Shown here in pieces: positions 6,147 to 30,501 of a stretch of DNA of 32,000 nt. Below the pieces are notes generated by a model, which was given only the letters and a program-made list of their open reading frames with translations, ran no database searches and was not told the origin of the DNA. The translations under genes and the position numbers were made by a program. Source of the stretch: Candidatus Lokiarchaeum ossiferum (GTDB taxonomy: Archaea; Asgardarchaeota; Lokiarchaeia; Sigyniarchaeales; Promethearchaeaceae); assembly GCA_025839675.1 (NCBI GenBank), contig CP104013.1, positions 4,350,001 through 4,382,000 of the forward strand, read 5' to 3'. How positions within the stretch are numbered: the stretch's first letter is position 1; each line of letters opens with the position of its first letter.

Positions 6147-6388
6147 AAAGGATAACTTCCGTTTTTACTAATATACTAAATTGGGTCTGAATATATAAAC
6201 ACTTTCATTTGTCATGGGGTCTTAAGTTCATTTTTTTTTGAATTTTTGCTATCCAATAAGTGTCTCATCGGTTATCAAGATAATTTAGATTAATTTTTTT
6301 TTTCCTTTTCAATAAAAATAAAATTTCAATATTATGAAAAATAAAAGGACTCATCTGAGATATAAGTAGTTTGAAAAAAATCCAAAAT

Positions 6389-7372
6389 TTAATCGAATCT
6401 CCGACATGTTTCAATAGTTTTCACTATAGATTCTCTAACTCCACCAGTACTGTATTGCAATCTTTCTTTTTGATCTGAGAGCTCAATGTAGAAGTTATCT
6501 GTAAGAATATCTGAAAATAAGTAGTAGGAATCTAGACCTTCATATATCTCTTTTCGTTTCATTTTCCATTTTCTTATTTTCCCAACAATCAAAAATATCC
6601 ATTTTGGAAGAGAAATGACTTTCTTTTTCTTACCATATGTTGAGAACATGATCGTAAGCATTTCTTTCCATGTGATATTTTCATCACCAATCACATAGTG
6701 CTGGTTTTTTTTCCCATTTTCCATGGCGTCAACAATTGCTTCTGCTACATGTTCTACGGTAATCATTGTTGATCCACCTTTTGGAAAAAAAATGATGTTC
6801 CAGTTTTTGAACCGGTCGATGAAAACGCTTTTCCATAGAGGTGCTCTGGCACTTTCAGGCATTGTTCCAAATATATACGGCAATTCGAGAATCATTGTAT
6901 CTATTTGTTCTCCTCCTGCTTCAATTGCATATTCTGCTTGTTCAATTCGACATTGAATATAGGGGTGATGAATTGCCAGTTTTTTCTTGGGATATTTTCT
7001 GTCAAAATAGGCAAAGTATGAGTTTAAAATTACTGCACGTTTAATTTTCGCTAAATTTGCTGCTTGAAAAACTTTTTGGGTTGTTAAAGCTAATTTTTCA
7101 TGAAAAAATTCATAAGGAGGTCTATCTGGAGTGGTTCTATCATCAGGTCCTATAGCATATACTAATGCATCGAATCCGGATAACATTTCAACCATTCTTT
7201 CTTGTTCCATTGAAAAAATATCTCCATATTGAACAGAAACTTTTGATGGAAACCATTTTCCTAATTTTATATCTGGAATTGCAATGGTGCTCACTTCATG
7301 TTCTCTTTTCAAAAATTCTAGAGTTGCATGATATCCTATAAAACCTGTTCCGCCTATTATAAACACTTTCAT
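6389..7372 (-). CDS. NAD(P)-dependent epimerase/dehydratase-like protein (atypical SDR)
   Basis: N-terminal Rossmann motif MKVFIIGGTGFIGYH. About 327 aa. The ORF-track start at 7384 is TTG; the ATG at 7372 puts the GxxGxxG motif at the N-terminus. The active-site region reads YIQCR (YxxxR rather than YxxxK). Confidence 0.7.
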   Translation of the reverse strand: MKVFIIGGTGFIGYHATLEFLKREHEVSTIAIPDIKLGKWFPSKVSVQYGDIFSMEQERMVEMLSGFDALVYAIGPDDRTTPDRPPYEFFHEKLALTTQKVFQAANLAKIKRAVILNSYFAYFDRKYPKKKLAIHHPYIQCRIEQAEYAIEAGGEQIDTMILELPYIFGTMPESARAPLWKSVFIDRFKNWNIIFFPKGGSTMITVEHVAEAIVDAMENGKKNQHYVIGDENITWKEMLTIMFSTYGKKKKVISLPKWIFLIVGKIRKWKMKRKEIYEGLDSYYLFSDILTDNFYIELSDQKERLQYSTGGVRESIVKTIETCRRFD

Positions 7373-7410
7373 TTGTTTGATCAACCCTTTTTGTGTTAAA
7401 TATGTTATTT

Positions 7411-7429
7411 CAAAAATGAAAAGAAAAAA
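7411..7429 (-). terminator. Oligo-T tracts just downstream of the 818-aa gene (candidate end of the long minus-strand operon)
   Basis: After the stop at 7430-7432 the minus strand reads TTTTTTCTTTTCATTTTTG. Confidence 0.35.
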
Positions 7430-9886
7430 TCATGAAACTATCTTATTTCCACATGCCACGCAGAAATTACTACCGTCAGGATTTTCTGTACCGCAATTCG
7501 GACATTTTATCGCATTTTCAGACATTGTTTCTTCAAATTCATGAAAATCAGGAAAATGAGCTTCAATTTTTAACCGGAGGTTATCTTCACGACGTTTAAT
7601 ATGTAACATCTTCTGGATATATTGCTCATATTTCTCCCGAATGATCGGAAATATGACTCCGTCTTTAATATCATCCCATAAAGACAAAGTTTCAAAGCTT
7701 TCATATCCAAATGACATTTTACACCATGAAACTGGTGTTAATCCTTCTGATTCTATCAAAGTAAACATTTTTTGTAATGTAGATTGATCGATCGAATAGG
7801 GAGTGATTTCTTGGGATAAATCATCAAGATTATCGGATAGGATAAATAAATTGGCTGCTTCTTCATCAACACACATGATACCGCATATTTTACCCTTTTG
7901 AAATCTCGGATCTTCAACAGAATCTGCAGCAATGTCTAAAGCTCCATGAGAATTTGGATTTGTTAAAAACTCTATCGTTTTTGCTCTTCCAAAATAGCGC
8001 ATTTCAATCCAACTATCTTGCGTTATTTTAGGAAATTCAGTATCTGTCCTTCTTTTATGGTGAATTTCTATTAATTTTTGAATTTCATCACCGGGAAGTT
8101 CTAGTTCTTCAAACACATTATCTTCAAAACCATTTCCTTCTAATTCTGTAAGCCCTAAAAATATTTGATTATTTCTTCGAATGCGAATAAATGCTTTTTG
8201 AAGCATATCTTCCAATTCATCGGGAGATTCAATATCTTTTTCATCCATTGCGATGAAGTCCTTTATTTGAGGGTTTCCTTCTACTTCTTCTTGGCTCCAA
8301 AAATTTGCCCACATTTGCATTCTTCTTAATTCTGGAATCATCCAAATATTTCTGCCGACCCCCATTGAGATCATGCAAACTGAACCGCCAATTTGCATTC
8401 CTTCCTTATTTGCGTAAGAAATAAGTGTTGGTGGGGGGTAAAATACTCTACTGATTGCTTCATCCTTCTGAGCAAGATCATCCAACTCGGACATTGCTGC
8501 AAGCGATGCTTCTAAATCTTTAAATATATCTTGCTGTGCCATAAGAGATGGATCAATTGAACCAAAATCTCCAAAATCACTTTCCAACGCAGCAGTTCCT
8601 GCTTGAAGGATTTTATCCATATTGTTTGGATCCATGACTTGATTGTCATTTTGATTAAAATTCACGTCGCTTGGGGATCGATTGAAGACATCCTCATATT
8701 CTTCTTCAGAAGGTTGTGATTCAGATAGTTTATTTGGAGTCGTTTTTTCTATTTTTGGAATTGCAATTGTTTTTAACGGTTTAAGGGCAATTTTAGCTAG
8801 TTCTGGTTTTTCTAGTTGTGAATTGGGTGTAGATTGTGACTCCGTTGTAATTTTAGTTAAATTTAATGGTGGAATTGCAATTTTTTCAAGTTGCGTTTGA
8901 GTTTTTTCTGTGAGATCTTTCTCTCTTTCTTGAGGTTCATTTCTTTCATCATGAGCCAACATTTCTGAAACTTTTTCTAAATTAAATGGATTTGATGGGA
9001 TTAATGTATCAACATATTCAAAGTGTGATGGATTTCCTGCCATTAAATCTTTCAAGTATTGATTATACTTCAAGATCGGTTTTGAAAATTGTGGTAAAAT
9101 TTCCATAGAGCGCCATTGTGGAAGATTTTGGAGTGCCCAAATGCCATAATCTAATTTAAATCCTCCTGTTGGAGAAAATTGTTTCATTTTAATGAGTTGT
9201 TCAACTGTATCTCTTCCTTTTTTATCAAGACTTAATGGTTGGAGTGTTTTTTCTTTAGTAATATTTTGTGATAGGATGACAAACTGAAATCTTTTTTTGG
9301 ATACGATATTAGTTCCAAAAATTCCACACAAACTCCCTCGAAAATATGCAGACATTTGAGAAAGTTGTTGTAATTCAAGTTTTTCCAAAGAATCTGATTG
9401 GCGGAAAAATTTTTCTCCTGTTCCAATGAATTGAGTGTAGATCGAATTTGTTTTCTTCTCCAAATCGGGATATATCTCATTTTGGTGATAATTTGAGGGC
9501 ATATTTTCAAAATATTTTGTCTTTCTACGAAACCAACTTCTCTCTTCAGTGATTTGCTTGTCAAATGGTTGAGGACCAAGATGTAAAAGACCAATAAAAA
9601 CATAGCCTTTTTTAATAATATATTCAAGTCCCTTAACGATCTGGGTGCTGATCCATGTGATATTTTTGGGATCATCAGAAGGATCTTTTTCCAGAGTAAT
9701 ATATTCCAATTCTTTATCAGAAACTTGAGTCCAAAACGATCTCCAGATCGAAGGATTATATAATTCTTGCACAATTTCTATATTTTTTTCCGGTGTTAAT
9801 GCAAGCATGCCTACAGAATGATTATATTTAATCAATTCTGCCGGATCGGATTCAAACATTACTGGGTAGGGATAAAATAATTTCAC
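7430..9886 (-). CDS. Large two-module protein of unknown family, with an acidic/Pro-rich disordered linker and a C-terminal zinc ribbon (paralog of 9929-11821)
   Basis: 818 aa with GTG start. The N-terminus MKLFYPYP parallels MRLYNPP of its neighbour. A second module starts at VFYPPP (residue 481). C-terminal CPNCGTENPDGSNFCVACGNKI (7433-7504) is a CxxC-x10-CxxC ribbon. I recognise no known catalytic motif. Confidence 0.8.
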   Translation of the reverse strand: MKLFYPYPVMFESDPAELIKYNHSVGMLALTPEKNIEIVQELYNPSIWRSFWTQVSDKELEYITLEKDPSDDPKNITWISTQIVKGLEYIIKKGYVFIGLLHLGPQPFDKQITEERSWFRRKTKYFENMPSNYHQNEIYPDLEKKTNSIYTQFIGTGEKFFRQSDSLEKLELQQLSQMSAYFRGSLCGIFGTNIVSKKRFQFVILSQNITKEKTLQPLSLDKKGRDTVEQLIKMKQFSPTGGFKLDYGIWALQNLPQWRSMEILPQFSKPILKYNQYLKDLMAGNPSHFEYVDTLIPSNPFNLEKVSEMLAHDERNEPQEREKDLTEKTQTQLEKIAIPPLNLTKITTESQSTPNSQLEKPELAKIALKPLKTIAIPKIEKTTPNKLSESQPSEEEYEDVFNRSPSDVNFNQNDNQVMDPNNMDKILQAGTAALESDFGDFGSIDPSLMAQQDIFKDLEASLAAMSELDDLAQKDEAISRVFYPPPTLISYANKEGMQIGGSVCMISMGVGRNIWMIPELRRMQMWANFWSQEEVEGNPQIKDFIAMDEKDIESPDELEDMLQKAFIRIRRNNQIFLGLTELEGNGFEDNVFEELELPGDEIQKLIEIHHKRRTDTEFPKITQDSWIEMRYFGRAKTIEFLTNPNSHGALDIAADSVEDPRFQKGKICGIMCVDEEAANLFILSDNLDDLSQEITPYSIDQSTLQKMFTLIESEGLTPVSWCKMSFGYESFETLSLWDDIKDGVIFPIIREKYEQYIQKMLHIKRREDNLRLKIEAHFPDFHEFEETMSENAIKCPNCGTENPDGSNFCVACGNKIVS

Positions 9887-9928
9887 TTTGATATACCTTT
9901 TGATTTTTTTTTTTAAATAGTTTTATGG

Positions 9929-11821
9929 TCAATATATGCGATACGGTTCTTCTTTCTCCTTGATTTTAATTAGTTCATCCATATATTTTTTATAATTTTC
10001 GAGAACTATTCTTAATGTGTCATATTGTACAGCGTCTTTCCAATATGGGTGTGTATGTAAAGTATCTTCCCCCAAATTAATTTTAAACCAACATAAAGGT
10101 GCCATATTTGTTTGGGATAAAGTTTCAAACATTTCGTTTAATGTTTCGGAGTCGAATTTAGTTCCATAATCTTCAAATGAGTTCGATAAAATATAAAAAG
10201 ATGTCGATTCTTGTGTTGTACAAACGATTCCTGCAGCAAAAGTATTGTCATAGGCAGAATCTACTTTTATTTTTTCTACAATATCTAAAATACTTGGGAA
10301 AGAATCTGCAAACGTAAAATAATGACTTCCCTTACCATACCACTGAACTCGTATATGTCCATCTTGGAGCTTTGGAAATTTTCCGTTTCTGATTTTGGTG
10401 TGATAATATTTTTGTATCCGCCTTAAATTTTTATCATCAATTTCAAGTTCTTGAAATAGACTAAATTCAAAACTATTTGATTCCAACTCTAACATCCCCA
10501 AAAAAGCTTCCGAACCTTTCATTATGTGCTGGAATGCTTGGATATAAGTGTCACGAAGTTGCACTGGATTTTCAAGTTCTAAAAATTGTTGATCCTCTTG
10601 AATATCATAAAAAACATTCTCATCAGTTTCCTTGGTGTTATCATCGTAGTAATATTCCCCCCAGGATAAATTTTCTCTTAAATCGAAAATGCAATTTATA
10701 TTTTCACCAACATCAATCGAAAGAAGTGTCAAAGCACCTCCAATAACTGCTCTTTTTTGATCTCCGTAGGCAAATAGAATTTTTGGTGGATTATAAAGTA
10801 AGCTGACAGCTCTATCTTCTTCAGCTAATTCATTCACTTTATTGAGGGCTTCCATGATTGTTTCCAGATCTTCTTCAATTTCATCTTCCGTCATATTTTT
10901 AATTGAAATTGGTTTGCCAAGATCTTCATCCAAAATATTTTCTACGGTCTTTTCTTCTCGCTTTATAATTAATCCTCGAACATAATCTAAATATTTAGAA
11001 TGAGCTTCTTGAACATCAGGTCGGTCTTTAATCTCATCATATCCATCCAATTGTTCCAATCCGGATAATCCTAAATCTACCTTAAACCATGAAATTGGTG
11101 CGGCTAAGACTCCTTTTTTTAGAAGTTGAAACATTTGATTTAAATTGTTTTTATCAATATGCACTTCAGCGGTTTTTTCTTGCTTGAATATATTATCTGT
11201 TAGAAGAATAAAATTAGCTGCACCTTGGGCGACGGCTACTATCCCAGAAGCATATCCTTGATACGGATACACCATTGCGGCAATATCGTTGAAATTCTTC
11301 TTGTTTGGGATTGTAAAAAAAGCAGATGTTTCCCCAAAAAAGTTGATTTCAACAAATGAGTTTCCACTTCCAGCCGCCTTATATAAATTCGGAAATTCAT
11401 TTTTTACACGACTAGATTTATATAAGTTCATTAATCGGTTTTGATCTTCGAGCTCTAATTCGACTTCATCAAATACAAATGTTTCAAATGCATTTCCTTC
11501 AAATGATGCTACTCCAAATAATATCAATCCCCGTGTCCGAATTCGATTCAAAGATGAAATTATACGACTTGCAAGTTCATTTGAATCATAAAGAGCTTCC
11601 GAATCTTCATGTTTGATATTAATTTTCTCAATTTGATCAGCGATCCGGATATTTTCTTTCCCTTTCCAAAATTCTCCTTGGCTCAACTCTGAAAAAATAT
11701 CCGAAATTTTTATGAATTCTTTTTCCTCATCCATCGCTAAAATGCATTTTGCTCCCGCTAGTTCAACACTATATTTATCACCTTTTGGTAATAACGCTAC
11801 GGGAGGATTATAAAGTCGCAT
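9929..11821 (-). CDS. Two-module protein of unknown family (paralog of 7430-9886)
   Basis: 630 aa from the ATG at 11821, which has GGTGA 5 nt upstream. The ORF-track start at 11833 is TTG. Module A covers residues ~1-295 and module B starts at LLYNPP (nt ~10801). It shares the motifs ...FLG(M/L).ELE.N.FE..(L/V)F.E(L/V)E..., GI(V/M)C/A....(A/S)..F.IL(S/T)(D/N)N and L(N/Q).MF..L......P(I/V/L).W(F/C)K(V/I/M).(L/F)G with the 818-aa protein. Confidence 0.8.
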   Translation of the reverse strand: MRLYNPPVALLPKGDKYSVELAGAKCILAMDEEKEFIKISDIFSELSQGEFWKGKENIRIADQIEKINIKHEDSEALYDSNELASRIISSLNRIRTRGLILFGVASFEGNAFETFVFDEVELELEDQNRLMNLYKSSRVKNEFPNLYKAAGSGNSFVEINFFGETSAFFTIPNKKNFNDIAAMVYPYQGYASGIVAVAQGAANFILLTDNIFKQEKTAEVHIDKNNLNQMFQLLKKGVLAAPISWFKVDLGLSGLEQLDGYDEIKDRPDVQEAHSKYLDYVRGLIIKREEKTVENILDEDLGKPISIKNMTEDEIEEDLETIMEALNKVNELAEEDRAVSLLYNPPKILFAYGDQKRAVIGGALTLLSIDVGENINCIFDLRENLSWGEYYYDDNTKETDENVFYDIQEDQQFLELENPVQLRDTYIQAFQHIMKGSEAFLGMLELESNSFEFSLFQELEIDDKNLRRIQKYYHTKIRNGKFPKLQDGHIRVQWYGKGSHYFTFADSFPSILDIVEKIKVDSAYDNTFAAGIVCTTQESTSFYILSNSFEDYGTKFDSETLNEMFETLSQTNMAPLCWFKINLGEDTLHTHPYWKDAVQYDTLRIVLENYKKYMDELIKIKEKEEPYRIY

Positions 11822-11836
11822 CAAATTCACCAAGTT

Positions 11837-13477
11837 TTATAAGTCAATCATTGAAAAATTTAAATCTAAGGTATGCAAAATCATTGGTAAATCATGCAAT
11901 TCTTCACCTTTCAATAGATCTGTACTCGCGCCATAGTTTGCTCGATCAGGAGTAATTAATCTGACCGTGTTCCACGTATCTAATGGTTTTTTTAAACCTG
12001 ATCGAAGATAGAGACCTAATGAGCCTTGAGGTGCTTCCACAACATCAATAAAATGCTGATTCGGTTCCCACTGAATACCATTTTCCATAATTTCAGATTT
12101 AAGATTCCTTCCATATGAAGATAATCCATGTAGAATGTGCTTGCAGATAGCAATCGATTCTTTAATTTCCCATAATCTTACTTGAGTTCTTGCAAAACTG
12201 TCGCCTTCTTTAAAAGTGATAACATTCCATACTTGAGATATTTCCCCTAAAGTATATGTTAAGTACGGATCATTTAAGCGAACATCAATTGGGATTCCAC
12301 TTCCTCTAATTGAAGGTCCCGTTAATCCGCTCTTAATTGCATTTTCTTGTGAGATTTTGCCAATATGCGCAAGATTTTGACTCACTTTTTGAGAGTATGT
12401 GAAATTATAAATATCATCAAATATCTGGTTTTCACTATCCCTAAAATAGTGATATAAATTTTGAGCCGCTGTCATAGATATATCTGTGGCTGATCCATAG
12501 CTGATGATGCTTAGCAAGTTTTTTGGATCCATGTGATTTTCTAAATGAATGGTGAGTTTCAAGTAATTTCGATAAATTTTTTTCGCCGCTCGTTTCATTC
12601 CAAATAAATCTGCAAGATTTGTGAACCACAATAAATGAGAAAAAATTCGTTCCAGCTCTGCCCCAAGGGTTCGAATAAACTTTGCCTTTAATGGGACTGA
12701 TTTCTCATTGATGAATTCAGACATCTGAGTATATAATAAATAATTATGAAAAGCATGATTTTTTGACAGTTCACTTAATACGGGGGCAAAACCATTGATA
12801 GGATCGGCGTTTTCTAAACGAGGTTGAAATTTTTTGTAGTTCCAGCCGTCCCGAATTTCAACTTTCTGAACAATATTTTCTTGAATATTGAGATCAAAAT
12901 AGTTTGCAGATTTATGAATCTCATCATAAATACCCGTTTTATCTTGAAACTGGGTTTGGGGCTTGAAATCAAAATTAGTTGGTGTACAGTAAAGATCTTC
13001 GTTTGATATTGCTTTATATGCAATATTAATAAATTCTATTCCCATTCGATGAGTTAACGTAGTTTCATGAATTTGGGCGTTCTTATATATTAAAGCAATT
13101 GAATCCAATTCTAATTTTTTTTTAATGACTAACTGGATGATGATTGATGATTTGTGAACAAAAGGGCGATTATGGAATAAGTAGTTTACTTCAAGTGAAT
13201 CTCCGATGTCAGAAGCAAAAATAGAAGACAAATTGAACTTTAAATCCCTGAAATACTTTGCAATATCTTTAATTCGAATTCTATTGACAAGTATCATGTT
13301 ATTATTCTCAGTTGAAATCCTTTTTAGAAAATCTAAGCCCAAAAAATTCTCGAGATTCGTGATTACTGCCTCAATACTAAGTTGCACGTTACGATTAGGT
13401 AAAACCTCACTTTGATGCGTTCTTACATCTGAATTTAGGGATATTTTTGGTAATCTACTTGATTCTGGGCCTTCCAT
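11837..13477 (-). CDS. NuoC-NuoD fusion-like protein (complex I 30-kDa/49-kDa, [NiFe]-hydrogenase large-subunit superfamily), degenerate and orphan
   Basis: NuoC-like part: DSLEVNYLFHN...YKNAQIHETTLTHRMGIEF (compare A-x-W-x-E-R-E-x-x-D-M-F-G-I-x-F). NuoD-like part: AELERIFSHLLWF, GLTGPSIRGSGIPIDVRLNDPYLTY, GDSFARTQVRLWEIKESI, VEAPQGSLGLYLRSG, VRLITPDRANYG. At the position of the hydrogenase RxCGxCxxxH motif it reads LSELSKNHAFH, and the C-terminus is LNFSMIDL. Neither contains any Cys. Confidence 0.75.
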   Translation of the reverse strand: MEGPESSRLPKISLNSDVRTHQSEVLPNRNVQLSIEAVITNLENFLGLDFLKRISTENNNMILVNRIRIKDIAKYFRDLKFNLSSIFASDIGDSLEVNYLFHNRPFVHKSSIIIQLVIKKKLELDSIALIYKNAQIHETTLTHRMGIEFINIAYKAISNEDLYCTPTNFDFKPQTQFQDKTGIYDEIHKSANYFDLNIQENIVQKVEIRDGWNYKKFQPRLENADPINGFAPVLSELSKNHAFHNYLLYTQMSEFINEKSVPLKAKFIRTLGAELERIFSHLLWFTNLADLFGMKRAAKKIYRNYLKLTIHLENHMDPKNLLSIISYGSATDISMTAAQNLYHYFRDSENQIFDDIYNFTYSQKVSQNLAHIGKISQENAIKSGLTGPSIRGSGIPIDVRLNDPYLTYTLGEISQVWNVITFKEGDSFARTQVRLWEIKESIAICKHILHGLSSYGRNLKSEIMENGIQWEPNQHFIDVVEAPQGSLGLYLRSGLKKPLDTWNTVRLITPDRANYGASTDLLKGEELHDLPMILHTLDLNFSMIDL

Positions 13478-13556: not shown

Positions 13557-14075
13557 TTAATGCTTTTGAGGTATGAAAAGGTAATTTTGCAGTTGGCGCC
13601 AATTAATAATAGAGTGATGAAAAATAATTTTTTTAGAAATCCCAATCCAAAGTAATCCGATAAGTCCTATTATTTCAGTACTATACACGAGTGGATTATT
13701 AAATAAAGTGTAAAAAAAATCTTCAATTTTCGATTCATATATTGTAATTGGTACTATAGGCCATAGCCAAGGGACTGCTGGAATATCTAATAATAAATGA
13801 AACAAAGTTCCGATTCCAAAAGACGAAGCTACATTCTTGTTTTTCGTTAGTAGAAATAAAATCAAGCTTATAATTCCCAATAAAAGCGGGGTATGGAAAT
13901 ATCCTCTTCCTCCAGCAATCCCAAAAATGAGAAACAATGGTTTATCTATAAGATCTGGAAAGATAGATCCTACAATAATCCAGAATATATGTATTTCTGG
14001 TTTTTTTTCCTTTTTAATCAACAATAATATTTCAACACAAAGTAATGGGACAAATATATGGAATAAGATGAACAT
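13557..14075 (-). CDS. Membrane-bound metal-dependent hydrolase-like protein (DUF457/YdjM-like), putative
   Basis: 172 aa and polytopic. IFPDLIDKPL, GGRGYFHTPLL and LFHLLLD resemble the LPDIDH / GHRGxTHS / SHLxxD pattern of DUF457 proteins. The first motif lacks the His. Confidence 0.45.
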   Translation of the reverse strand: MFILFHIFVPLLCVEILLLIKKEKKPEIHIFWIIVGSIFPDLIDKPLFLIFGIAGGRGYFHTPLLLGIISLILFLLTKNKNVASSFGIGTLFHLLLDIPAVPWLWPIVPITIYESKIEDFFYTLFNNPLVYSTEIIGLIGLLWIGISKKIIFHHSIINWRQLQNYLFIPQKH

Positions 14076-14083
14076 TTGTTAAG

Positions 14084-15406
14084 CTAAATAATGAAGCGTG
14101 ATAAATAAACAAAAGCAACTGCCATAAAAGTAATGATTCCACTCATTTTCAGTGCCATTTTTAATAAATAATTGTAGGATAAGGGCTTTGGGGTGAATTT
14201 ATCTGTTTTTTGCAAAATAGAATCAATTTGTGGTAATCCAAAGCCTTGTGTATATTCTGGAAGTTGCAAAATCATTGAATTTTGTTGAAATAAAGACACT
14301 AAATCTGTTGAAGTACAATTTGGGACAACTTGTAGGAATAATGCTGCAAAACCCGCAAAAATGGCCGCCGCACTTGATGTTCCTGATATTCTAGAACTTG
14401 TTGCAGGAACATTTTTTCCAGGAAGGACAAATGTTGGTTTTAATTGTGAGGATTTGTTAAATGAAGCGCTTGAATTTCTACCTGAAAAGAAGAGCTTTTT
14501 ATATTGTTGATCGACTGCTCCAATACATATTACGTTTGGATTCATACTTGGATTACCAATATTCCCCGGATCTGGTCCTAAGTTTCCTGTTGGTGCTATT
14601 AGAATTATATTTTTTGAGGACAATAACGGTAAATAATGGCTGAATAAATCATCTGAAACGCCTTTAGAGCCTGTAGAACATCCAAAAAGCAGAATATGGG
14701 GCATTTCTTCTTGTGGTAAATCAAGTAGGTTTTCTAACCCTTGTATTATATCACTTAAAGTTGAAGATCCATCAGAATCAAAAACTTTAATGTCGATTAG
14801 TTTAATATTGGGGGCAATTCCCGCAAATAAATTTTGAGAGTTCTGTCCCGACCCAACAATGATACTGGCTAAATTCGTTCCATGAAGGTTATAGTGATTT
14901 GAATCTCCAATCGAATCTCCAATTTGTTTGATCTGTTTTTTAGAATATCCTAATTTATTAGGATCAATTCCTGAGTCTAGTATTGCAATGCGAATGCCTT
15001 TGCCGGTAATTTCTTCATAGGAATTATGAATTTCTTCAAGATTTATTTCTTCATTAAATTCTTCTCCACATAAATAGATTGGATAGTTACCATATATTCT
15101 AATGATTTCGTGGTTATCTGATAACTGGTAACATTCCTGGTACGTCGATTCTAACAATGCTATAGGAAAATGATGAAATTCTGATAGTATCTTCAATTTT
15201 ACATTTGAATCAGCCTGAGAATTTTTAATATTATTAACAAACTGTTCCAATTGTTCCAAATCTCCAAATTGGACGAGATAATTAATGATTATTTCGTTTG
15301 ACAACCTTTCCAAATCGAATTCATTTTCCAGTAATTCAATCGGAGAATGTTTCGCCACCCAAAGCTCAATGGGATCAAAATTTTCATGGAATTTGGATAT
15401 AATCAT
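14084..15406 (-). CDS. Subtilisin-like serine protease (peptidase S8) with a C-terminal TM anchor and no signal peptide
   Basis: Catalytic motifs in canonical order: IAILDSGID (Asp144), HGTNLASII (His175), APTGNLG (oxyanion Asn275), SGTSSAAAIFAG (Ser344). One hydrophobic helix at ~417-437, 3 residues from the C-terminus. The N-terminal ~130 aa are hydrophilic and acidic. GAGGT Shine-Dalgarno ~10 nt upstream. Confidence 0.8.
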   Translation of the reverse strand: MIISKFHENFDPIELWVAKHSPIELLENEFDLERLSNEIIINYLVQFGDLEQLEQFVNNIKNSQADSNVKLKILSEFHHFPIALLESTYQECYQLSDNHEIIRIYGNYPIYLCGEEFNEEINLEEIHNSYEEITGKGIRIAILDSGIDPNKLGYSKKQIKQIGDSIGDSNHYNLHGTNLASIIVGSGQNSQNLFAGIAPNIKLIDIKVFDSDGSSTLSDIIQGLENLLDLPQEEMPHILLFGCSTGSKGVSDDLFSHYLPLLSSKNIILIAPTGNLGPDPGNIGNPSMNPNVICIGAVDQQYKKLFFSGRNSSASFNKSSQLKPTFVLPGKNVPATSSRISGTSSAAAIFAGFAALFLQVVPNCTSTDLVSLFQQNSMILQLPEYTQGFGLPQIDSILQKTDKFTPKPLSYNYLLKMALKMSGIITFMAVAFVYLSRFII

Positions 15407-15468: not shown

Positions 15469-16221
15469 TTAATTGTGCTCTCTGATTTTATTCAAAATAT
15501 CTTCTAAAGCAAAATCTGCCATACCTAAGCTTGTGTTTGCATTGAACAGAAGCACTACGTATATTGGGGTATGAAAAGTCTCAATAGAAACGACTTGAGA
15601 AAAAATCAATTTATCGCCACCTTGCCAAATGAATTTAGGATTAGAGACGATTTCTCTTCGATTAGCCTTCGATCGTAGCTCTATTTCCCGCAAACTGGTT
15701 TCCAAATCTTCTAGTGGCAATGAAGAATAGTAGATTTCCCCTTTTAACGACATTAGTGCTGCAGCAAGAAGATCTCCTCTGGATATTTCCCCTTCAAAAA
15801 TATGTTTTAATGATTCGATGTTTGTATCACTGTAATCATCTTGGAAATTGAAAATTTCATCAATACGATTCTCTGTATCTTCATCGTCCAAAAAAATATT
15901 CGTGTCCAATGCCCGTTGGATTTTATCAAGATCAACGGCTGAAATTATTCGATCCATTCTTTCATCTAATAAAAGAGCACTCGAATCACTCGAAGTAATT
16001 ACTATGAAAATAAAATCTCCATGATGACGAAAGAAAAAACGAAGGCTTCCCATTTCCAAAATATTAAGTTTTTGATTAACAATTGTACTTGAAAAAGCCA
16101 TTATTGCCCCAAAAAAAGAAGAAAGTAGGGTAAAATCCGTTTTTATTAGTTCCTCGCTGAAATTTTTGTGATAAATTGGAATTCCAGAATTGTGGAGTAT
16201 GAAAAAACTATGAATTTGCAT
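15469..16221 (-). CDS. Two-domain protein: N-terminal longin-like domain plus C-terminal Roadblock/LC7-like domain (putative)
   Basis: The N-terminus MQIHSFFILHNSGIPIYHKNF...DFTLLSSFFGAIMAFSS...LEMGSLRFFFRHHGDFIFIVITS follows the longin / sigma-adaptin-like beta-beta-alpha-beta-beta-beta pattern. The C-terminus LLAAALMSLKGEIYYSSL...KFIWQGGDKLIFSQV...IYVVLLFNANTSLGMADFALEDILNKI follows the Roadblock pattern. Assigned by pattern only. Confidence 0.45.
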   Translation of the reverse strand: MQIHSFFILHNSGIPIYHKNFSEELIKTDFTLLSSFFGAIMAFSSTIVNQKLNILEMGSLRFFFRHHGDFIFIVITSSDSSALLLDERMDRIISAVDLDKIQRALDTNIFLDDEDTENRIDEIFNFQDDYSDTNIESLKHIFEGEISRGDLLAAALMSLKGEIYYSSLPLEDLETSLREIELRSKANRREIVSNPKFIWQGGDKLIFSQVVSIETFHTPIYVVLLFNANTSLGMADFALEDILNKIREHN

Positions 16222-16230
16222 TGCGAGTTC

Positions 16231-16680
16231 TTATTCCTGTGTTCGTTCCATTTGTAATTTGTAGAGTACAATCCTAAATCGTAATATATCCTTTAAAATT
16301 TTCTCAGGATGAGGTGTTTGCCCAGTAATAATAAAGGAATCATTACCTTCTAACGGAAAAATAACAAAATTCTTCTTTTCACCAAAGTTATAAGATATAT
16401 ACTTTAGAGGATTTTCTTCTTCATTGGGAAATAGTTTCAAAATTTGATATCGAATGAAATATTCACTCATTTTAGCATTGTATCTTTTTGATTGCTTATG
16501 ATCCTCAAGGTAGTTTTCTGAGAAAACACTCATGATTTCTAGTCCTTTAATCTTTCCAGTTACTCCGACTAAAGCTAAAAAAGAAGATTGAGATTTTTTA
16601 AGGGTTGATTCAAATTGCTGTTCTAGCTCCTTTATTGCTTCAATTTCTTGTTTAGAAAAGAATTTTGAAAGAATTCCCAT
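16231..16680 (-). CDS. Roadblock/LC7-fold-like small protein (putative)
   Basis: 149 aa. The predicted alpha-beta-beta-alpha-beta-beta-alpha order is readable from the sequence: EIEAIKELEQQFESTL / FLALVGVTG / IKGLEIMSV / YNAKMSEYFIRYQILKLF / LKYISYNFGEKK / FVIFPLEGNDSFIITG / PEKILKDILRFRIVLYKL. Confidence 0.4.
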   Translation of the reverse strand: MGILSKFFSKQEIEAIKELEQQFESTLKKSQSSFLALVGVTGKIKGLEIMSVFSENYLEDHKQSKRYNAKMSEYFIRYQILKLFPNEEENPLKYISYNFGEKKNFVIFPLEGNDSFIITGQTPHPEKILKDILRFRIVLYKLQMERTQE

Positions 16681-16697
16681 TATTATTTCAATCCTTT

Positions 16698-17162
16698 CTA
16701 ACTCATTTCACTCTCAAAAATGCATTTTTTGCATCCATTGGCGATAAGTTCTTTTGGTTCCATGTAAAATTGTTTGTCTGGAAACGCAAGTTGAAGGGCT
16801 GTATCAAATAATCCTTCTGTATAGTGGCAGAAAAATTCCATATCTTGAATGGGAAACCCTCCTGCTTTTTTATAAGGGCATGCATCTAATTCGATATCAA
16901 TTTTATTTCCATTTAGTTTTACTGACCCCTTATTTTCACCGATAACCGGTTCGATTACCTCAGACACGAGTAAATTGCAAAATTCCTCTACTGTAGTATA
17001 TTTTCCTTTAAATTTCCGGAAAATATCTTCTGCAGCGGCTTCACCAACTCTACGGAAAATCATCGTTAACGTTTCAAAGCCAAGGGTATCTTTAATCTCC
17101 TTTAAACTCATTTGAAATATATTTGCAATAAATTTTAATTGTCTAACTCTTTTTGTGACCAT
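16698..17162 (-). CDS. V4R (4-vinyl reductase / Bet3-TRAPP-related) domain protein
   Basis: IFRRVGEAAAEDI..., ELDACPYKK...FFCHYTEGLFDTALQLAF and C-terminal ELIANGCKKCIFESE match the V4R pattern (C-x-x-C... C-H-x-x-x-G-x-x-x-G ... E-x-x-C-x-x-x-G-x-x-x-C-x-F). I chose the start at ATG 17162 because GGTGA lies 5 nt upstream and abuts the upstream stop (TAAGGTGAAAAGAATG). An alternative ATG at 17189 would overlap the Roadblock gene by 17 nt. Confidence 0.6.
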   Translation of the reverse strand: MVTKRVRQLKFIANIFQMSLKEIKDTLGFETLTMIFRRVGEAAAEDIFRKFKGKYTTVEEFCNLLVSEVIEPVIGENKGSVKLNGNKIDIELDACPYKKAGGFPIQDMEFFCHYTEGLFDTALQLAFPDKQFYMEPKELIANGCKKCIFESEMS

Positions 17163-17172
17163 TCTTTTCACC

Positions 17173-17550
17173 TTATCCAAAAATTTCATTCAACTTCTCT
17201 GCTGCATCTTCCAGTTCCAAACTAATCAATCCTAAGTTTGGTTCTTGTTTAGTCAATACAATTAAGATCACTTTTCCTGTGAAAAGTAAGAAAACATTCC
17301 CAGTTGAAATTTCAATATTTAGCGATTTAAATTCTCCTTTTAGTAATTCTCCAGATGCTCGTTTGGAGATACTGTATAAAGCCGAAGCCATAGCTCCTAA
17401 AAGGCGTTCTGATTTTTTATCTTGGCTGATAGTTTTTCGTAGAGATAAAATAATCAAACCATTTGTTCGAGCAATAGCAAGATCATTTAAATCTGGAGCT
17501 CTGTTGTGTAGATCCTCCAGTAATTTTCTTGCTTCATCCATCCTACTCAT
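17173..17550 (-). CDS. Roadblock/LC7 (MglB-like) domain protein
   Basis: LNDLAIARTNGLIILSL...LLGAMASALYSISKRASGELLKGEFKSLNIEISTGNVFLLFTGKVILIVLTKQEPNLGLISLELEDAAEKL is a textbook Roadblock/LC7 pattern. I chose the start at ATG 17550, preceded by GGGGAG. The ORF extends to 17622, but its first 24 codons look non-coding. Confidence 0.75.
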   Translation of the reverse strand: MSRMDEARKLLEDLHNRAPDLNDLAIARTNGLIILSLRKTISQDKKSERLLGAMASALYSISKRASGELLKGEFKSLNIEISTGNVFLLFTGKVILIVLTKQEPNLGLISLELEDAAEKLNEIFG

Positions 17551-17573
17551 TTTTTTCTCCCCTCTCTGTCCTA

Positions 17574-17583
17574 TTTTAAATAT
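17574..17583 (-). promoter_or_regulatory. Candidate TATA box for the Roadblock-led operon
   Basis: The minus strand reads ATATTTAAAA 24-33 nt upstream of the ATG at 17550, inside a 280-nt AT-rich gap to the upstream gene. Confidence 0.3.
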
Positions 17584-17833
17584 CTGTTTTGTTCCATCAA
17601 AAAAAAGGTTTGTTGTAAACATAAAATTTCTCTTTACGATATGTATGGGAGAGAAATTTGTATTGTGATAAAATGAGTTTTTTTAACTTAAATTATTATG
17701 GTCACCAAACTTCGTTCATTAACAATTTAATCTTTTATTTATATTCTTTTTTCTTCTGCTTTAAAGCATGAAAAAATTCACTGCATAGATATCGAAAATA
17801 AATTTAGATTCTGAAGAGAATCTTCAATTCATA

Positions 17834-27340: not shown

Positions 27341-28255
27341 ATGGAAAATAGCAAGATGACCGAACTATCTGAATTTAAAAAAAAATTTCAAAATCATCAA
27401 ATCTCCGATGAAGGTGTGGAAATACCTCTTATTTTAGAAGGTCAATATCGGCGTGCTTATGATATATTAACTGATGCTTATAATGCTGGGCTCTATGCTG
27501 GAATTGTGGGTCCAGTCGGATCCGGAAAAACTGCTCTCTGTCGGAAATTTGCCGAGGATCAAAAGCTTGGCTTTTCTTGGGTTACATTTTCCGATTTAAT
27601 TCGCCCAAGTTCATTGATAGGTACATTTGATCCAACATTAGTATTCAAGTTGGGATATAGTGTGGATTCCTTTATCCCTGGACCTTTCACCTTAGCTAGC
27701 ATTGAAGGTAATATTTTCTTTGCAAATGAAGTAAATCGTGGTGAAGAGTATGTTTTGAACACATTGCTTGATGCGTTGGAAGAAAAGCGCCTCTATATAC
27801 CACAATTAAAGACTTGGGTATCCTTAGATGATCAGTTTTATTTTATTGCTTCAATGAATCCAAGTGACCTTCGCGGGACACGCGTATTACCCGAAGCATT
27901 TAAGGATCGGATACGGGTCTGGATCACCCTCGATTATCCTACCAAAGACGTTGAAAAAAAAATCATTCGAATGAATTGTCCTGAATTGAGTTTACGAGAA
28001 CAAGATATTGATAAAATTATTGAAATTGTGGCTCAAACACGTCAATCTCCTTTGATAACTAAGCCAGCCTCCATTCGAACTTCTATTAGTTTTGCGAAAT
28101 TGCTTGGACAAAGATGCAGTCGGTTAAATGTTGAACCTTCTTTAGATCTCTTTGTGGATATTGGTCGTTTAGTTTTAAATCAAAATTTAGAATCTAGTCC
28201 CGGAATTACTGTTGAAAAGATTGTTGATGAGATAATTTCAGCTGTTTTTTGTTAA
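27341..28255 (+). CDS. AAA+ ATPase of the MoxR / CbbQ-NorQ-GvpN (AAA_5) class
   Basis: Walker A GPVGSGKT (27509-27532). Walker B region IFFANEVNR (27713-27739), with Asn at the usual Asp position. Sensor-1-like FIASMNP. LPEAFKDRI. Lid segment KPASIRTSISFAKL. Confidence 0.8.
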   Translation: MENSKMTELSEFKKKFQNHQISDEGVEIPLILEGQYRRAYDILTDAYNAGLYAGIVGPVGSGKTALCRKFAEDQKLGFSWVTFSDLIRPSSLIGTFDPTLVFKLGYSVDSFIPGPFTLASIEGNIFFANEVNRGEEYVLNTLLDALEEKRLYIPQLKTWVSLDDQFYFIASMNPSDLRGTRVLPEAFKDRIRVWITLDYPTKDVEKKIIRMNCPELSLREQDIDKIIEIVAQTRQSPLITKPASIRTSISFAKLLGQRCSRLNVEPSLDLFVDIGRLVLNQNLESSPGITVEKIVDEIISAVFC

Positions 28256-28296
28256 ACATCTAGGAATTTAGATATGCAAAAATTGGATAAATAAAA

Positions 28297-30501
28297 ATGT
28301 TTGGAATCGCTCTTGATCTTGAAGAATTTATCTCTACTTTTATCCGTCGGATGCGGCAACATGAGAAAATTCGAAGTCCTCCGAGTATTCGTCAAGGGAT
28401 TGCTCTTTTTAAACTTCTAAATTCTCGTTTCCATCGATCTCCTCCCCTAAACATGCAAGATCTTTTGGAAGCAGCTATTATCACCACTTATTACTTGGAT
28501 CAACATATAGCTTCTGAAATTGCCCAAGATATCATCATCAGCACTTTGAACGAACGCATTGCAGATTCTCGGGAATTCCGAAGCTATGGAACATACGAAA
28601 ATTTACTTACCTTAGGCAATTTTGGGGCGGATTATTTGAAAGATATCAGGGTCTTGGATAAATTAATGAAGGCGGATCCTTCTGTCTTCCAAGATACTTC
28701 CAAGTTCTTAGATGAAATCTATGATGCCATAAAACAAGACTTAAGTCTTCAAGATCTACAATTTCTCGAAAAACGTGATAAATTAGAAGAAAATCTTGGT
28801 GATATTACTGATCCTGAACTTTCCATGTATGCTAATAAACTTCTTGGGAATGATAATCAATGGAAATCCCAGTTGGGTGAAATAATGCAAGATTTATCGA
28901 AAGATCTGCAGAAAATATTTAAGAATTTAAATGAATTGGGTGTTTCTAACGATGAAATTGAACAAATGAAGCAAGAATTTTGTATGGACGATAAAGATGG
29001 TAACTCACAATTCAAAAATTCTTCCGATTCTCGAGATTTTTCAGATTCTCATTCCGACTCTCTCACTCAACAGATATCAGATTCGATCGCCTCCAATTCT
29101 TTATCGCAGGATTCATCACGCTCTGAACTTGATCCAGATCAAATGGATCCTATGAATTTTTCTCAATTAAAAGAACTGATGGAAAAAAGCACAAAAATAC
29201 CTCCACAGTCTTCCTGGGATTCCACAAAATTTAAACAAGCTCTTGAAGAGATAAGATCAGCTGCGAAAGATCTATTGCAGCAAAGTACGACACAAGAACA
29301 ATTTTTCGAACAATTACAAGAAATGATGGAAAATTTGGTTCCTTGTGATATTCAAGATATTCAGGACATTGCCAATAATTTAGGGGTGGATCCATCTCAC
29401 CTCGATACAATACTTAATCAACCCTTGAATAATTTGCATGATCTAATTGAAAAAAATTTAGGAAATATGGGGCAATTTTCCAATATGATTCAACAATTGG
29501 GTCCAGATTCAAATATGAGCCGTGATTTGATTCAAAAAGGTATAGAATTTCAAAATTCCGAATTTCTGGGCTCTATGGCTCAATTCTCGCTAGAAGAAAC
29601 TGCCAATGCTGTAGCCAAGAAAAATAGTGATAGGTTGAATGCCTTGTTTTTACAGGGGCTTCGAAAAGCTTCTGGGGATAACCTCCTTCATTCGTGGTTT
29701 TTTCATCAATCCAAACTGTCTACCTCCATACGTGTGCTAATTAAACAATTTCTTCAACAACTCATTATTGATAAAGCCTGTTTTGTTGTAAAACATCAAA
29801 TGGGGAAGTTGAAACATGGTTTGATGTTCTCATCTCAAGATTTGCGATATTATCGTCCTGGAGATCCCATTTCTCAAGTCGATTTGGAGGCAACCTTTGA
29901 ACATTTATTAGATCAAGGGAAAAATCTCTCCACATTGAATCAAAATGATATCCTATGTCGGAAAGAAGGAGGAAGCTCAGTGAAATGTTTTCTTATTCTC
30001 GATAAATCTGGTTCTATGGAAGGAACGAAATTAAAACTCGCAACCTATTCAACCGCGGTGTTATCTTCTTTTCTCAAACGGGAAGATTTTTCAATAGTTC
30101 TCTTCGATAGCGATGCTTATAAATTCAAAACCTTCACTTCGCATGTAGATCTCGATACAATCGTAAGTTCCTTATTGGATCTTTCGGCTGAAGGTGGGAC
30201 TCAGATCGAACAAACTCTAAACTATGTTGCTCAAGAATGTGCAAAATGCCCCGCGAATCAAAAATTTCTCATCTTTCTTTTTTCGGATTTGGCTGTCTAT
30301 GAACAACCTGCCGAACTAAAGACCATTCTAAATCAAATGCAAAAATATCAAATTGATATTCATTTATTTCATCCTGAAAATCCCAATAAACTAATTTTGC
30401 AATGTTTAGAATCCATTTTACCCGTCTATGTTCATCACATTACTTCATTAAGCCAGATCCCTCAAATTTTAACTCGAGCTTTTCATACGGCTTTAAAATA
30501 A
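28297..30501 (+). CDS. Large von Willebrand factor A (VWA) domain protein, partner of the upstream AAA+ (CbbO/NorD-like architecture)
   Basis: C-terminal VWA domain with MIDAS D-x-S-x-S in FLILDKSGSMEG (30001-30015), plus later T and D positions (AEGGTQIE, FLFSDL). Long helical N-terminal region. Asp/Ser-rich low-complexity segment around 28990-29150. Starts 41 nt after the ATPase stop. Confidence 0.8.
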   Translation: MFGIALDLEEFISTFIRRMRQHEKIRSPPSIRQGIALFKLLNSRFHRSPPLNMQDLLEAAIITTYYLDQHIASEIAQDIIISTLNERIADSREFRSYGTYENLLTLGNFGADYLKDIRVLDKLMKADPSVFQDTSKFLDEIYDAIKQDLSLQDLQFLEKRDKLEENLGDITDPELSMYANKLLGNDNQWKSQLGEIMQDLSKDLQKIFKNLNELGVSNDEIEQMKQEFCMDDKDGNSQFKNSSDSRDFSDSHSDSLTQQISDSIASNSLSQDSSRSELDPDQMDPMNFSQLKELMEKSTKIPPQSSWDSTKFKQALEEIRSAAKDLLQQSTTQEQFFEQLQEMMENLVPCDIQDIQDIANNLGVDPSHLDTILNQPLNNLHDLIEKNLGNMGQFSNMIQQLGPDSNMSRDLIQKGIEFQNSEFLGSMAQFSLEETANAVAKKNSDRLNALFLQGLRKASGDNLLHSWFFHQSKLSTSIRVLIKQFLQQLIIDKACFVVKHQMGKLKHGLMFSSQDLRYYRPGDPISQVDLEATFEHLLDQGKNLSTLNQNDILCRKEGGSSVKCFLILDKSGSMEGTKLKLATYSTAVLSSFLKREDFSIVLFDSDAYKFKTFTSHVDLDTIVSSLLDLSAEGGTQIEQTLNYVAQECAKCPANQKFLIFLFSDLAVYEQPAELKTILNQMQKYQIDIHLFHPENPNKLILQCLESILPVYVHHITSLSQIPQILTRAFHTALK

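Follow-up and report, generated by a model that had tools for sequence, protein, structure and literature searches.

Two adjacent paralogous genes of Candidatus Lokiarchaeum ossiferum encode four copies of a domain that matches no known family

What is the repeated domain encoded by two adjacent genes of Candidatus Lokiarchaeum ossiferum, how did its copies arise, and what might the two proteins do together? We addressed these questions in a window of 32,000 nucleotides (nt), the whole stretch of DNA analysed here (assembly GCA_025839675.1, contig CP104013.1, positions 4,350,001 to 4,382,000 of the forward strand), which is AT-rich with a GC content of about 0.33. A first-pass annotation of the window, made from the sequence alone, had described two adjacent paralogous genes carrying four copies of an unassigned module of about 290 amino acids (aa). 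Both open reading frames (ORFs) were found on the minus strand at the positions it gave. The genes, called A and B below, correspond to NEF87_003726 and NEF87_003727 of Ca. Lokiarchaeum ossiferum, each with 100% identity (Table 1). The ORF of B covers 9929-11833; its real start codon is the ATG at 11821, which lies 15 nt past the stop codon of an upstream gene for a NuoC/D-like protein and is preceded by a Shine-Dalgarno-like GGTGA. Gene A begins with a GTG 42 nt past the B stop codon, and a T-rich tract lies downstream of its own stop codon. The two Lokiarchaea in culture, L. ossiferum and P. syntrophicum, each carry orthologues of both genes, and literature and supplement searches using the two locus tags found no mention of them.

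Each protein contains an N-terminal and a C-terminal module (A_N, A_C, B_N and B_C). BLASTP of the excised modules gave end-to-end alignments for six of six pairs, with E values of 2e-47 for A_C/B_C, 5e-37 for A_C/B_N and 1e-23 for B_N/B_C; the pairs involving A_N gave 2e-15 with A_C, 7e-14 with B_N and 2e-9 with B_C. In Smith-Waterman comparisons against 300 composition-preserving shuffles, all six pairs scored higher by 15 to 63 standard deviations. The four-fold homology described by the first-pass annotation is thus confirmed by sequence comparison, with significant similarity for every pair, and the four recurring motifs that it had listed are present and collinear in a MAFFT alignment. 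Its view that A_N is the most diverged and possibly a degenerate copy held as well. Orthologues are 38-49% identical to the window protein in A_N, compared with 50-57% in A_C and 45-67% in B_N and B_C, and in A_N motif 2 no longer has its conserved E and N, nor motif 4 its W.

The invariant or near-invariant positions in the 42-sequence module alignment (A1) are mostly Gly, Pro or aromatic residues. No Cys or His is conserved across the family, as had been proposed. The accompanying statement that the module lacks any metal-binding or catalytic signature was only partly borne out: conserved Cys and His are indeed absent, but, in the numbering of A_C, residues E113, N115, E118 and D230 show 81-97% conservation in B_N, B_C, A_C and the single-module relatives described below. 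The first three form an E-x-N-x-x-E motif in the loop after strand 5. In A_N, E113 and N115 are replaced, and likewise G31 and W251. We consider the E/N/E/D set a candidate acidic binding site that would be degenerate in A_N.

Searches of Pfam, NCBIfam and PADLOC returned no match for the modules, the sole hit in A or B being a PF13240 zinc ribbon at the C-terminus of A. The module profile built on A1 retrieved no chain from the PDB sequences even at E<=10. AlphaFold2, run on A_C with the same alignment, gave a confident model (predicted local distance difference test [pLDDT], 88.8; predicted template modelling score [pTM], 0.87) with the element order b-b-b-b-a-b-a-b-a-a-b-b-a-b (a, alpha; b, beta) followed by a 30-residue helix. 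A model of full-length B repeated this order in both modules (pLDDT, 82), with a pTM of 0.49, so that no intramolecular module arrangement such as a pseudo-dimer can be claimed from it. We then compared the single-module A_C model and the full-length B model with 350,542 PDB chains by Foldseek, which returned nothing at E<=0.001 for either. The best matches were Csy3/Cas7 (E, 0.19; template modelling [TM] score, 0.17), CheF (E, 0.32) and MPN domains (E, 0.6-3; TM, <=0.27), and every hit had a TM score of <=0.27 and a probability of <=0.20. A Foldseek search of BFVD likewise found no structural match. Confident profile or structure matches to a characterised family were therefore absent from Pfam, NCBIfam, PADLOC, the PDB and BFVD, and the description of the module as unassigned stands. 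The predicted module may represent a new fold. This claim is provisional, and a survey of 124,075 archaeal proteins reported <0.1% well-folded structural orphans, attributing most unclassified proteins to sensitivity limits (PMC13607799).

We next determined how widely the module is distributed. A hidden Markov model (HMM) search of 1.84 billion cluster representatives yielded 78 proteins at E<=0.001, of which about 76 are true members; a word-indexed protein search with the profile as query added few proteins. The two hits rejected as family members were giant Q-rich repeat proteins (P0072, 5,535 aa, E 2e-45; P0085, 3,875 aa, E 1e-26), whose scores are spurious because they sum 28 and 16 weak repeat hits, respectively, to a single 47-position stretch of the profile (154-200). 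The family comprises A-type proteins, B-type proteins, fragments and single-module proteins of about 310-350 aa; two further single-module proteins carry a long C-terminal extension, which in one of them (P0080) looks TPR-like by eye. Genome and metagenome loci were scanned with a narrower alignment (A3). Among 185,579 species genomes, 18 loci were found, all 18 in Promethearchaeota (Lokiarchaeota), and the metagenome scan added 14 further loci. In the genome scan, genomes with the A/B pair gave no single-module locus, and those with a single-module locus gave no pair. Judged from these searches, the module family is restricted to Lokiarchaea, and the conclusion that A and B define an undescribed, lineage-specific domain family is well supported. 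Hypothetical families confined to a single lineage are frequent in Asgard genomes. One partial B homologue (P0035, 66% identity) is labelled Heimdallarchaeota, but its contig measures only 1,174 bp and is probably a mis-binned Lokiarchaeal one.

The single-module proteins offer a view of how the four copies may have arisen. A rough neighbor-joining tree resolved four monophyletic module clades, in which A_C was sister to B_C, B_N grouped with the single-module proteins and A_N formed a long branch. The single-module proteins end in a linker and an acidic helix, and an HMM of this tail helix matched the linker between the two B modules (about residues 290-332) at a constant position in about 30 of 35 B orthologues, with 15 matches at E<0.05, compared with a best E of 0.73 among 250 shuffled controls. 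Protein A also has a conserved helix before A_C, placed like the linker helix of B and preceded by short repeats and an EEYEDVF motif. The homology of the B linker to the single-module tail, together with the module tree, supports an order of events in which a single-module gene (module plus tail helix) would have duplicated head to tail to give an N-C protein, whose gene would then have duplicated to give B and A. Subsequently, A would have gained its long, disordered Pro/Lys-rich linker while A_N decayed. An origin of the four copies in two successive duplications within a Lokiarchaea-restricted family is well supported.

To place the pair in its genomic context, the proteins of the window were compared by tblastn with all recovered loci. 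The order S8 subtilase - YdjM - NuoC/D-like - B - A was found in 11 of the 11 pair loci with enough flank, including those of P. syntrophicum MK-D1 and Harpocratesius, and in the window the intergenic gaps are short (15 nt from the NuoC/D-like gene to B and 42 nt from B to A). An L-aspartate oxidase gene flanks the cluster on one side where present (7 of 11 pair loci), and genes for a dUTPase and ArgRS flank the other side where the flank reaches that far. The NuoC/D-like protein matched the Pfam models Complex1_30kDa (1.7e-6) and Complex1_49kDa (8.6e-29) as well as the NdhH and NuoD chains in the PDB (7e-19). It thus resembles a fusion of the complex I subunits NuoC and NuoD, but it lies far below the family cut-offs (124 bits against the 360-bit NCBIfam cut-off for NuoD), and the cluster contains no other nuo genes. 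Its C-terminus reads ...LDLNFSMIDL, and it does not have the Cys ligands of [NiFe] hydrogenases. It could be a redox-dead Q-module protein that was exapted. The likeness to complex I belongs to this neighbour and not to the module: hhalign of A1 against the NuoC/D-like protein gave a probability of 0.15, and the modules had no Pfam match. The S8 protein retains its Asp, His and Ser motifs. It is probably tail anchored with a cytosolic protease domain, since its sequence reads as having no signal peptide and one C-terminal hydrophobic segment.

The explanation that we favour takes A and B as paralogous, co-transcribed proteins bearing four copies of an alpha/beta domain of about 290 residues, which arose by the duplications set out above and now form a hetero-oligomeric scaffold; to this explanation as a whole we give an even chance (about 0.5). 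Its mechanistic part we infer as follows. The ancestral single-module protein would have self-associated, and the present-day assembly of A and B would be an obligate hetero-oligomer, pseudo-symmetric and with four nonequivalent modules. Three of these modules would keep the acidic/polar site (E-x-N-x-x-E plus Asp), at which a metal, small ligand or partner would bind, with A_N as a degenerate, purely structural copy. Together with the degenerate NuoC/D-like protein, the A/B assembly would act as a cytosolic scaffold or ligand-binding platform, possibly at the membrane near the YdjM-like protein and the tail-anchored S8 protease. Proteasome alpha/beta subunits and prefoldin alpha/beta are examples of a duplicated self-associating ancestor that gave rise to a pseudo-symmetric hetero-oligomer. 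The A/B pair resembles such systems in its single-module ancestor, its tandem and gene duplications, its unequal divergence and its one degenerate copy, but differs in that its oligomerization is deduced from gene structure alone.

Several points weigh against this explanation. The association of A with B or with the NuoC/D-like protein is likewise read from gene structure alone, and most single-module loci have no adjacent NuoC/D, YdjM or S8 gene. The exceptions are one locus in which a NuoC/D-like gene is the convergent neighbour of the single-module gene (L017) and another in which an S8 gene and an L-aspartate oxidase gene lie beside it (L027). Moreover, all loci belong to one phylum, so that common descent, and not selection, may explain part of the conservation of gene order. 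The neighbor-joining tree is rough, with A_N on a long branch, and the E/N/E/D residues could be conserved because the protein is an enzyme and not a scaffold. Many single-module genes do lie within a few kilobases of the dUTPase gene, a marker that also flanks the pair cluster.

A conserved five-gene cluster is common to both cultured Lokiarchaea, and A, B and the NuoC/D-like protein are its three soluble components. A bolder version holds that the fold is truly new and that a four-module A/B platform surrounds an exapted, redox-dead NuoC/D within a non-respiratory, membrane-proximal complex invented in Lokiarchaea. We think this unlikely. If true, it would provide a clear case of complex I parts reused outside respiration, and a stepwise passage from a homo-oligomer to a four-module hetero-oligomer whose single-module form survives in other genomes. 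The pair does not seem to bear on eukaryogenesis, since the searches gave no homologue in eukaryotes and the proximity of longin and Roadblock genes discussed below is local to one genus-level lineage; the general interest is limited accordingly.

The most durable alternative concerns the fold itself and is compatible with any functional reading. Here the module would not be new but would consist of two fused small known folds, for instance a beta-rich N-terminal subdomain and a ferredoxin-like b-a-b-b-a-b half, or would have an MPN-, RAMP- or GAF-like core that Foldseek missed. We lean against this reading while regarding it as a serious possibility. The second half of the module does show the b-a-b-b-a-b order, MPN domains (CSN6, Rpn8/Rpn11; E, 0.6-3) and Cas7/Csy3 (E, 0.19-2.5) recur among the sub-threshold hits, and the rarity of structural orphans in the archaeal survey also speaks for a known fold; the uniformly low TM scores and probabilities speak against it, as do the absence of a JAMM motif and of a CRISPR context. 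Like A and B, the MPN heterodimers Rpn8-Rpn11 and CSN5-CSN6 are paralogue pairs with one degenerate member, and MPN chains recur among the best, nonsignificant matches of both models. In contrast to them, the module has neither the JAMM signature (E...HxH...S..D) nor any conserved His, and the matches have root mean square deviations of >10 A. The Cas7/Csy3 RAMP backbone shares with the module its size (about 300-340 aa) and its long beta-hairpins and provides the top matches of the single-module model, but the best of these combines its E value of 0.19 with a TM score of only 0.17, PADLOC was empty and the locus has no CRISPR/cas context.

A second alternative appears rather unlikely to us. 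It takes E-x-N-x-x-E plus Asp as the site of an enzyme, or of a domain that binds a metal or a small molecule. A/B would then be a multi-site enzyme in which the A_N module is dead, and it would perhaps work with the S8 protein and the YdjM-type putative hydrolase. This reading would account for the conservation of the four polar residues in three module types and in the single-module proteins and for the loss of E113 and N115 in A_N. The E-x-N-x-x-E loop is confidently modelled (block pLDDT, 91), and the neighbouring genes encode hydrolase-type proteins. However, no enzyme family was matched by sequence or structure, and the remaining conserved positions are all Gly, Pro or hydrophobic residues.

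The last alternative had been raised, as speculation, by the first-pass annotation, which compared the pair with tri-longin guanine nucleotide exchange factor (GEF) pairs. In this reading, longin, Roadblock or DENN (profilin-like) domains would have diverged very far to give the modules, and A/B would serve a small GTPase as a GEF-like or GTPase-activating protein-like platform in the manner of Mon1-Ccz1. It is very improbable, having no support from the Pfam, hhalign and Foldseek results or from the order of secondary-structure elements. None of the 42 modules matched a longin, Roadblock or DENN Pfam model at E<=1; the longin families PF19036 (Fuz_longin_1), PF19031 and PF13774 were not reported at this threshold for A, B or any module, and Roadblock/LC7 (PF03259; MglB/LAMTOR type) and DENN/folliculin-type models were equally silent. 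The hhalign probability of the module profile was 0.1 against each of the longin and Roadblock proteins of the window itself. The PDB contains structures of Mon1-Ccz1, Ragulator, TRAPP and folliculin, and the best 50 Foldseek PDB matches of either model included no longin, Roadblock or DENN chain. A longin domain has about 120-140 residues in the order b-b-a-b-b-b-a-a. Unlike it, all three modelled modules show b-b-b-b-a-b / a-b-a-a-b-b-a-b and a long helix in DSSP assignments of the AlphaFold2 models, an order that also differs from the Roadblock fold.

The attraction of the longin idea lay in the operon context and in the architecture. Like the GEF pairs Mon1-Ccz1, Fuz-Inturned and HPS1-HPS4, A and B are paralogues built from repeated alpha/beta modules and presumed partners, and the window encodes Roadblock and Fuz_longin_1 proteins immediately upstream, on the strand of the cluster and separated by short gaps. 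Of the four small genes there, the locus most closely related to the window (L005) keeps those for the 149-aa protein and the longin protein, and the remaining loci, including those of Promethearchaeum and Harpocratesius, keep none. The upstream 163-aa protein has a weak match to MetOD1 and the 149-aa protein has no match. The context argument is weak, since no recovered locus other than those of the window and its closest relative has a Roadblock or longin gene upstream; the partners that are conserved are the S8, YdjM-like and NuoC/D-like genes. Moreover, the conserved cluster contains no GTPase gene that could serve as a partner. The single-module locus L027 carries, at 6196-8229 on the other strand and 2-4 kb from the module gene, genes for a V4R protein and a Ras/Rab-like small GTPase. 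This proximity could be counted in favour of a GTPase-linked role, but neither gene has BLAST similarity to the upstream genes of the window. The longin/Roadblock/DENN idea is thus not supported, although it keeps a small probability because the structural comparison was made by Foldseek.

Two further readings were rejected. PADLOC had no match for A, B or the NuoC/D-like protein, which led us to dismiss a defence system. An origin from a virus or mobile element was dismissed because tblastn against phage records returned no match, BFVD was empty and the chromosomal position is syntenic.

Table 1. Features of the A/B locus, with positions counted from the first letter of the window
Feature	Position	Strand	Remarks
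Gene A (NEF87_003726)	7430..9886	-	818 aa; two modules
C-terminal zinc ribbon of A	7433..7516	-	PF13240, 5.6e-8
A_C module, residues 478-790	7517..8455	-	Modelled module; E-x-N-x-x-E at about 8123-8140
Conserved helix before A_C	8456..8566	-	DPSLMAQQDIFKDLEASLAAMSELDDLAQ; position equivalent to the B linker helix
A linker, residues 286-440	8567..9031	-	Variable, Pro/Lys/Ile-rich; repeats IAIPPL, IALKPL, IAIPKI
EEYEDVF motif in A linker	8684-8704	-	Conserved; after the short repeats
A_N module, residues 1-285	9032..9886	-	Most diverged; motif 2 E-x-N and motif 4 W lost
Gene B (NEF87_003727)	9929..11821	-	630 aa; two modules
B_C module, residues 336-630	9932..10816	-	Conserved ...YRIY at the C-terminus
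B inter-module linker	10817..10951	-	Acidic helix MTEDEIEEDLETIMEALNKVNEL, residues 310-332; homologous to the single-module C-terminal tail
B_N module, residues 1-290	10952..11821	-	Slowest-evolving copy, nearest to single-module relatives; QGAANF and PISWFK motifs
NuoC+NuoD fusion-like protein	11837..13477	-	546 aa; directly upstream of B in pair loci
YdjM-family membrane protein	13557..14075	-	Conserved cluster member
S8 subtilase	14084..15406	-	Conserved cluster member
Four small genes	15469-17622	-	Roadblock/LC7; 163-aa; 149-aa; 250-aa Fuz_longin_1; gaps of 9-62 nt

The zinc ribbon of A is limited to 3 of the 13 aligned A orthologues, namely the window protein, its closest relative and one other. 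The linkers of A orthologues carry lineage-specific repeats: IPLKKA recurs about 15 times in P0041, and P0048 repeats SPLQKP. The short linker repeats and the strictly conserved EEYEDVF motif that comes after them may act as docking motifs.

Other genes were noted near members of the family. The most divergent single-module clade consists of P0083 and P0143; at their loci (L002, 2822-5464; L023, 1799-4540), the module gene is convergent with a gene for a DEAD/Helicase_C/DUF5814 helicase. In a Harpocratesius locus (L004, 12385-19224), a 2,279-aa protein with a faint Big_1 match is encoded between the A and dUTPase genes. Near the end of the window itself, at 27341-30501 on the plus strand, a gene for a MoxR-like AAA_5 ATPase adjoins one for a 734-aa VWA-domain protein.

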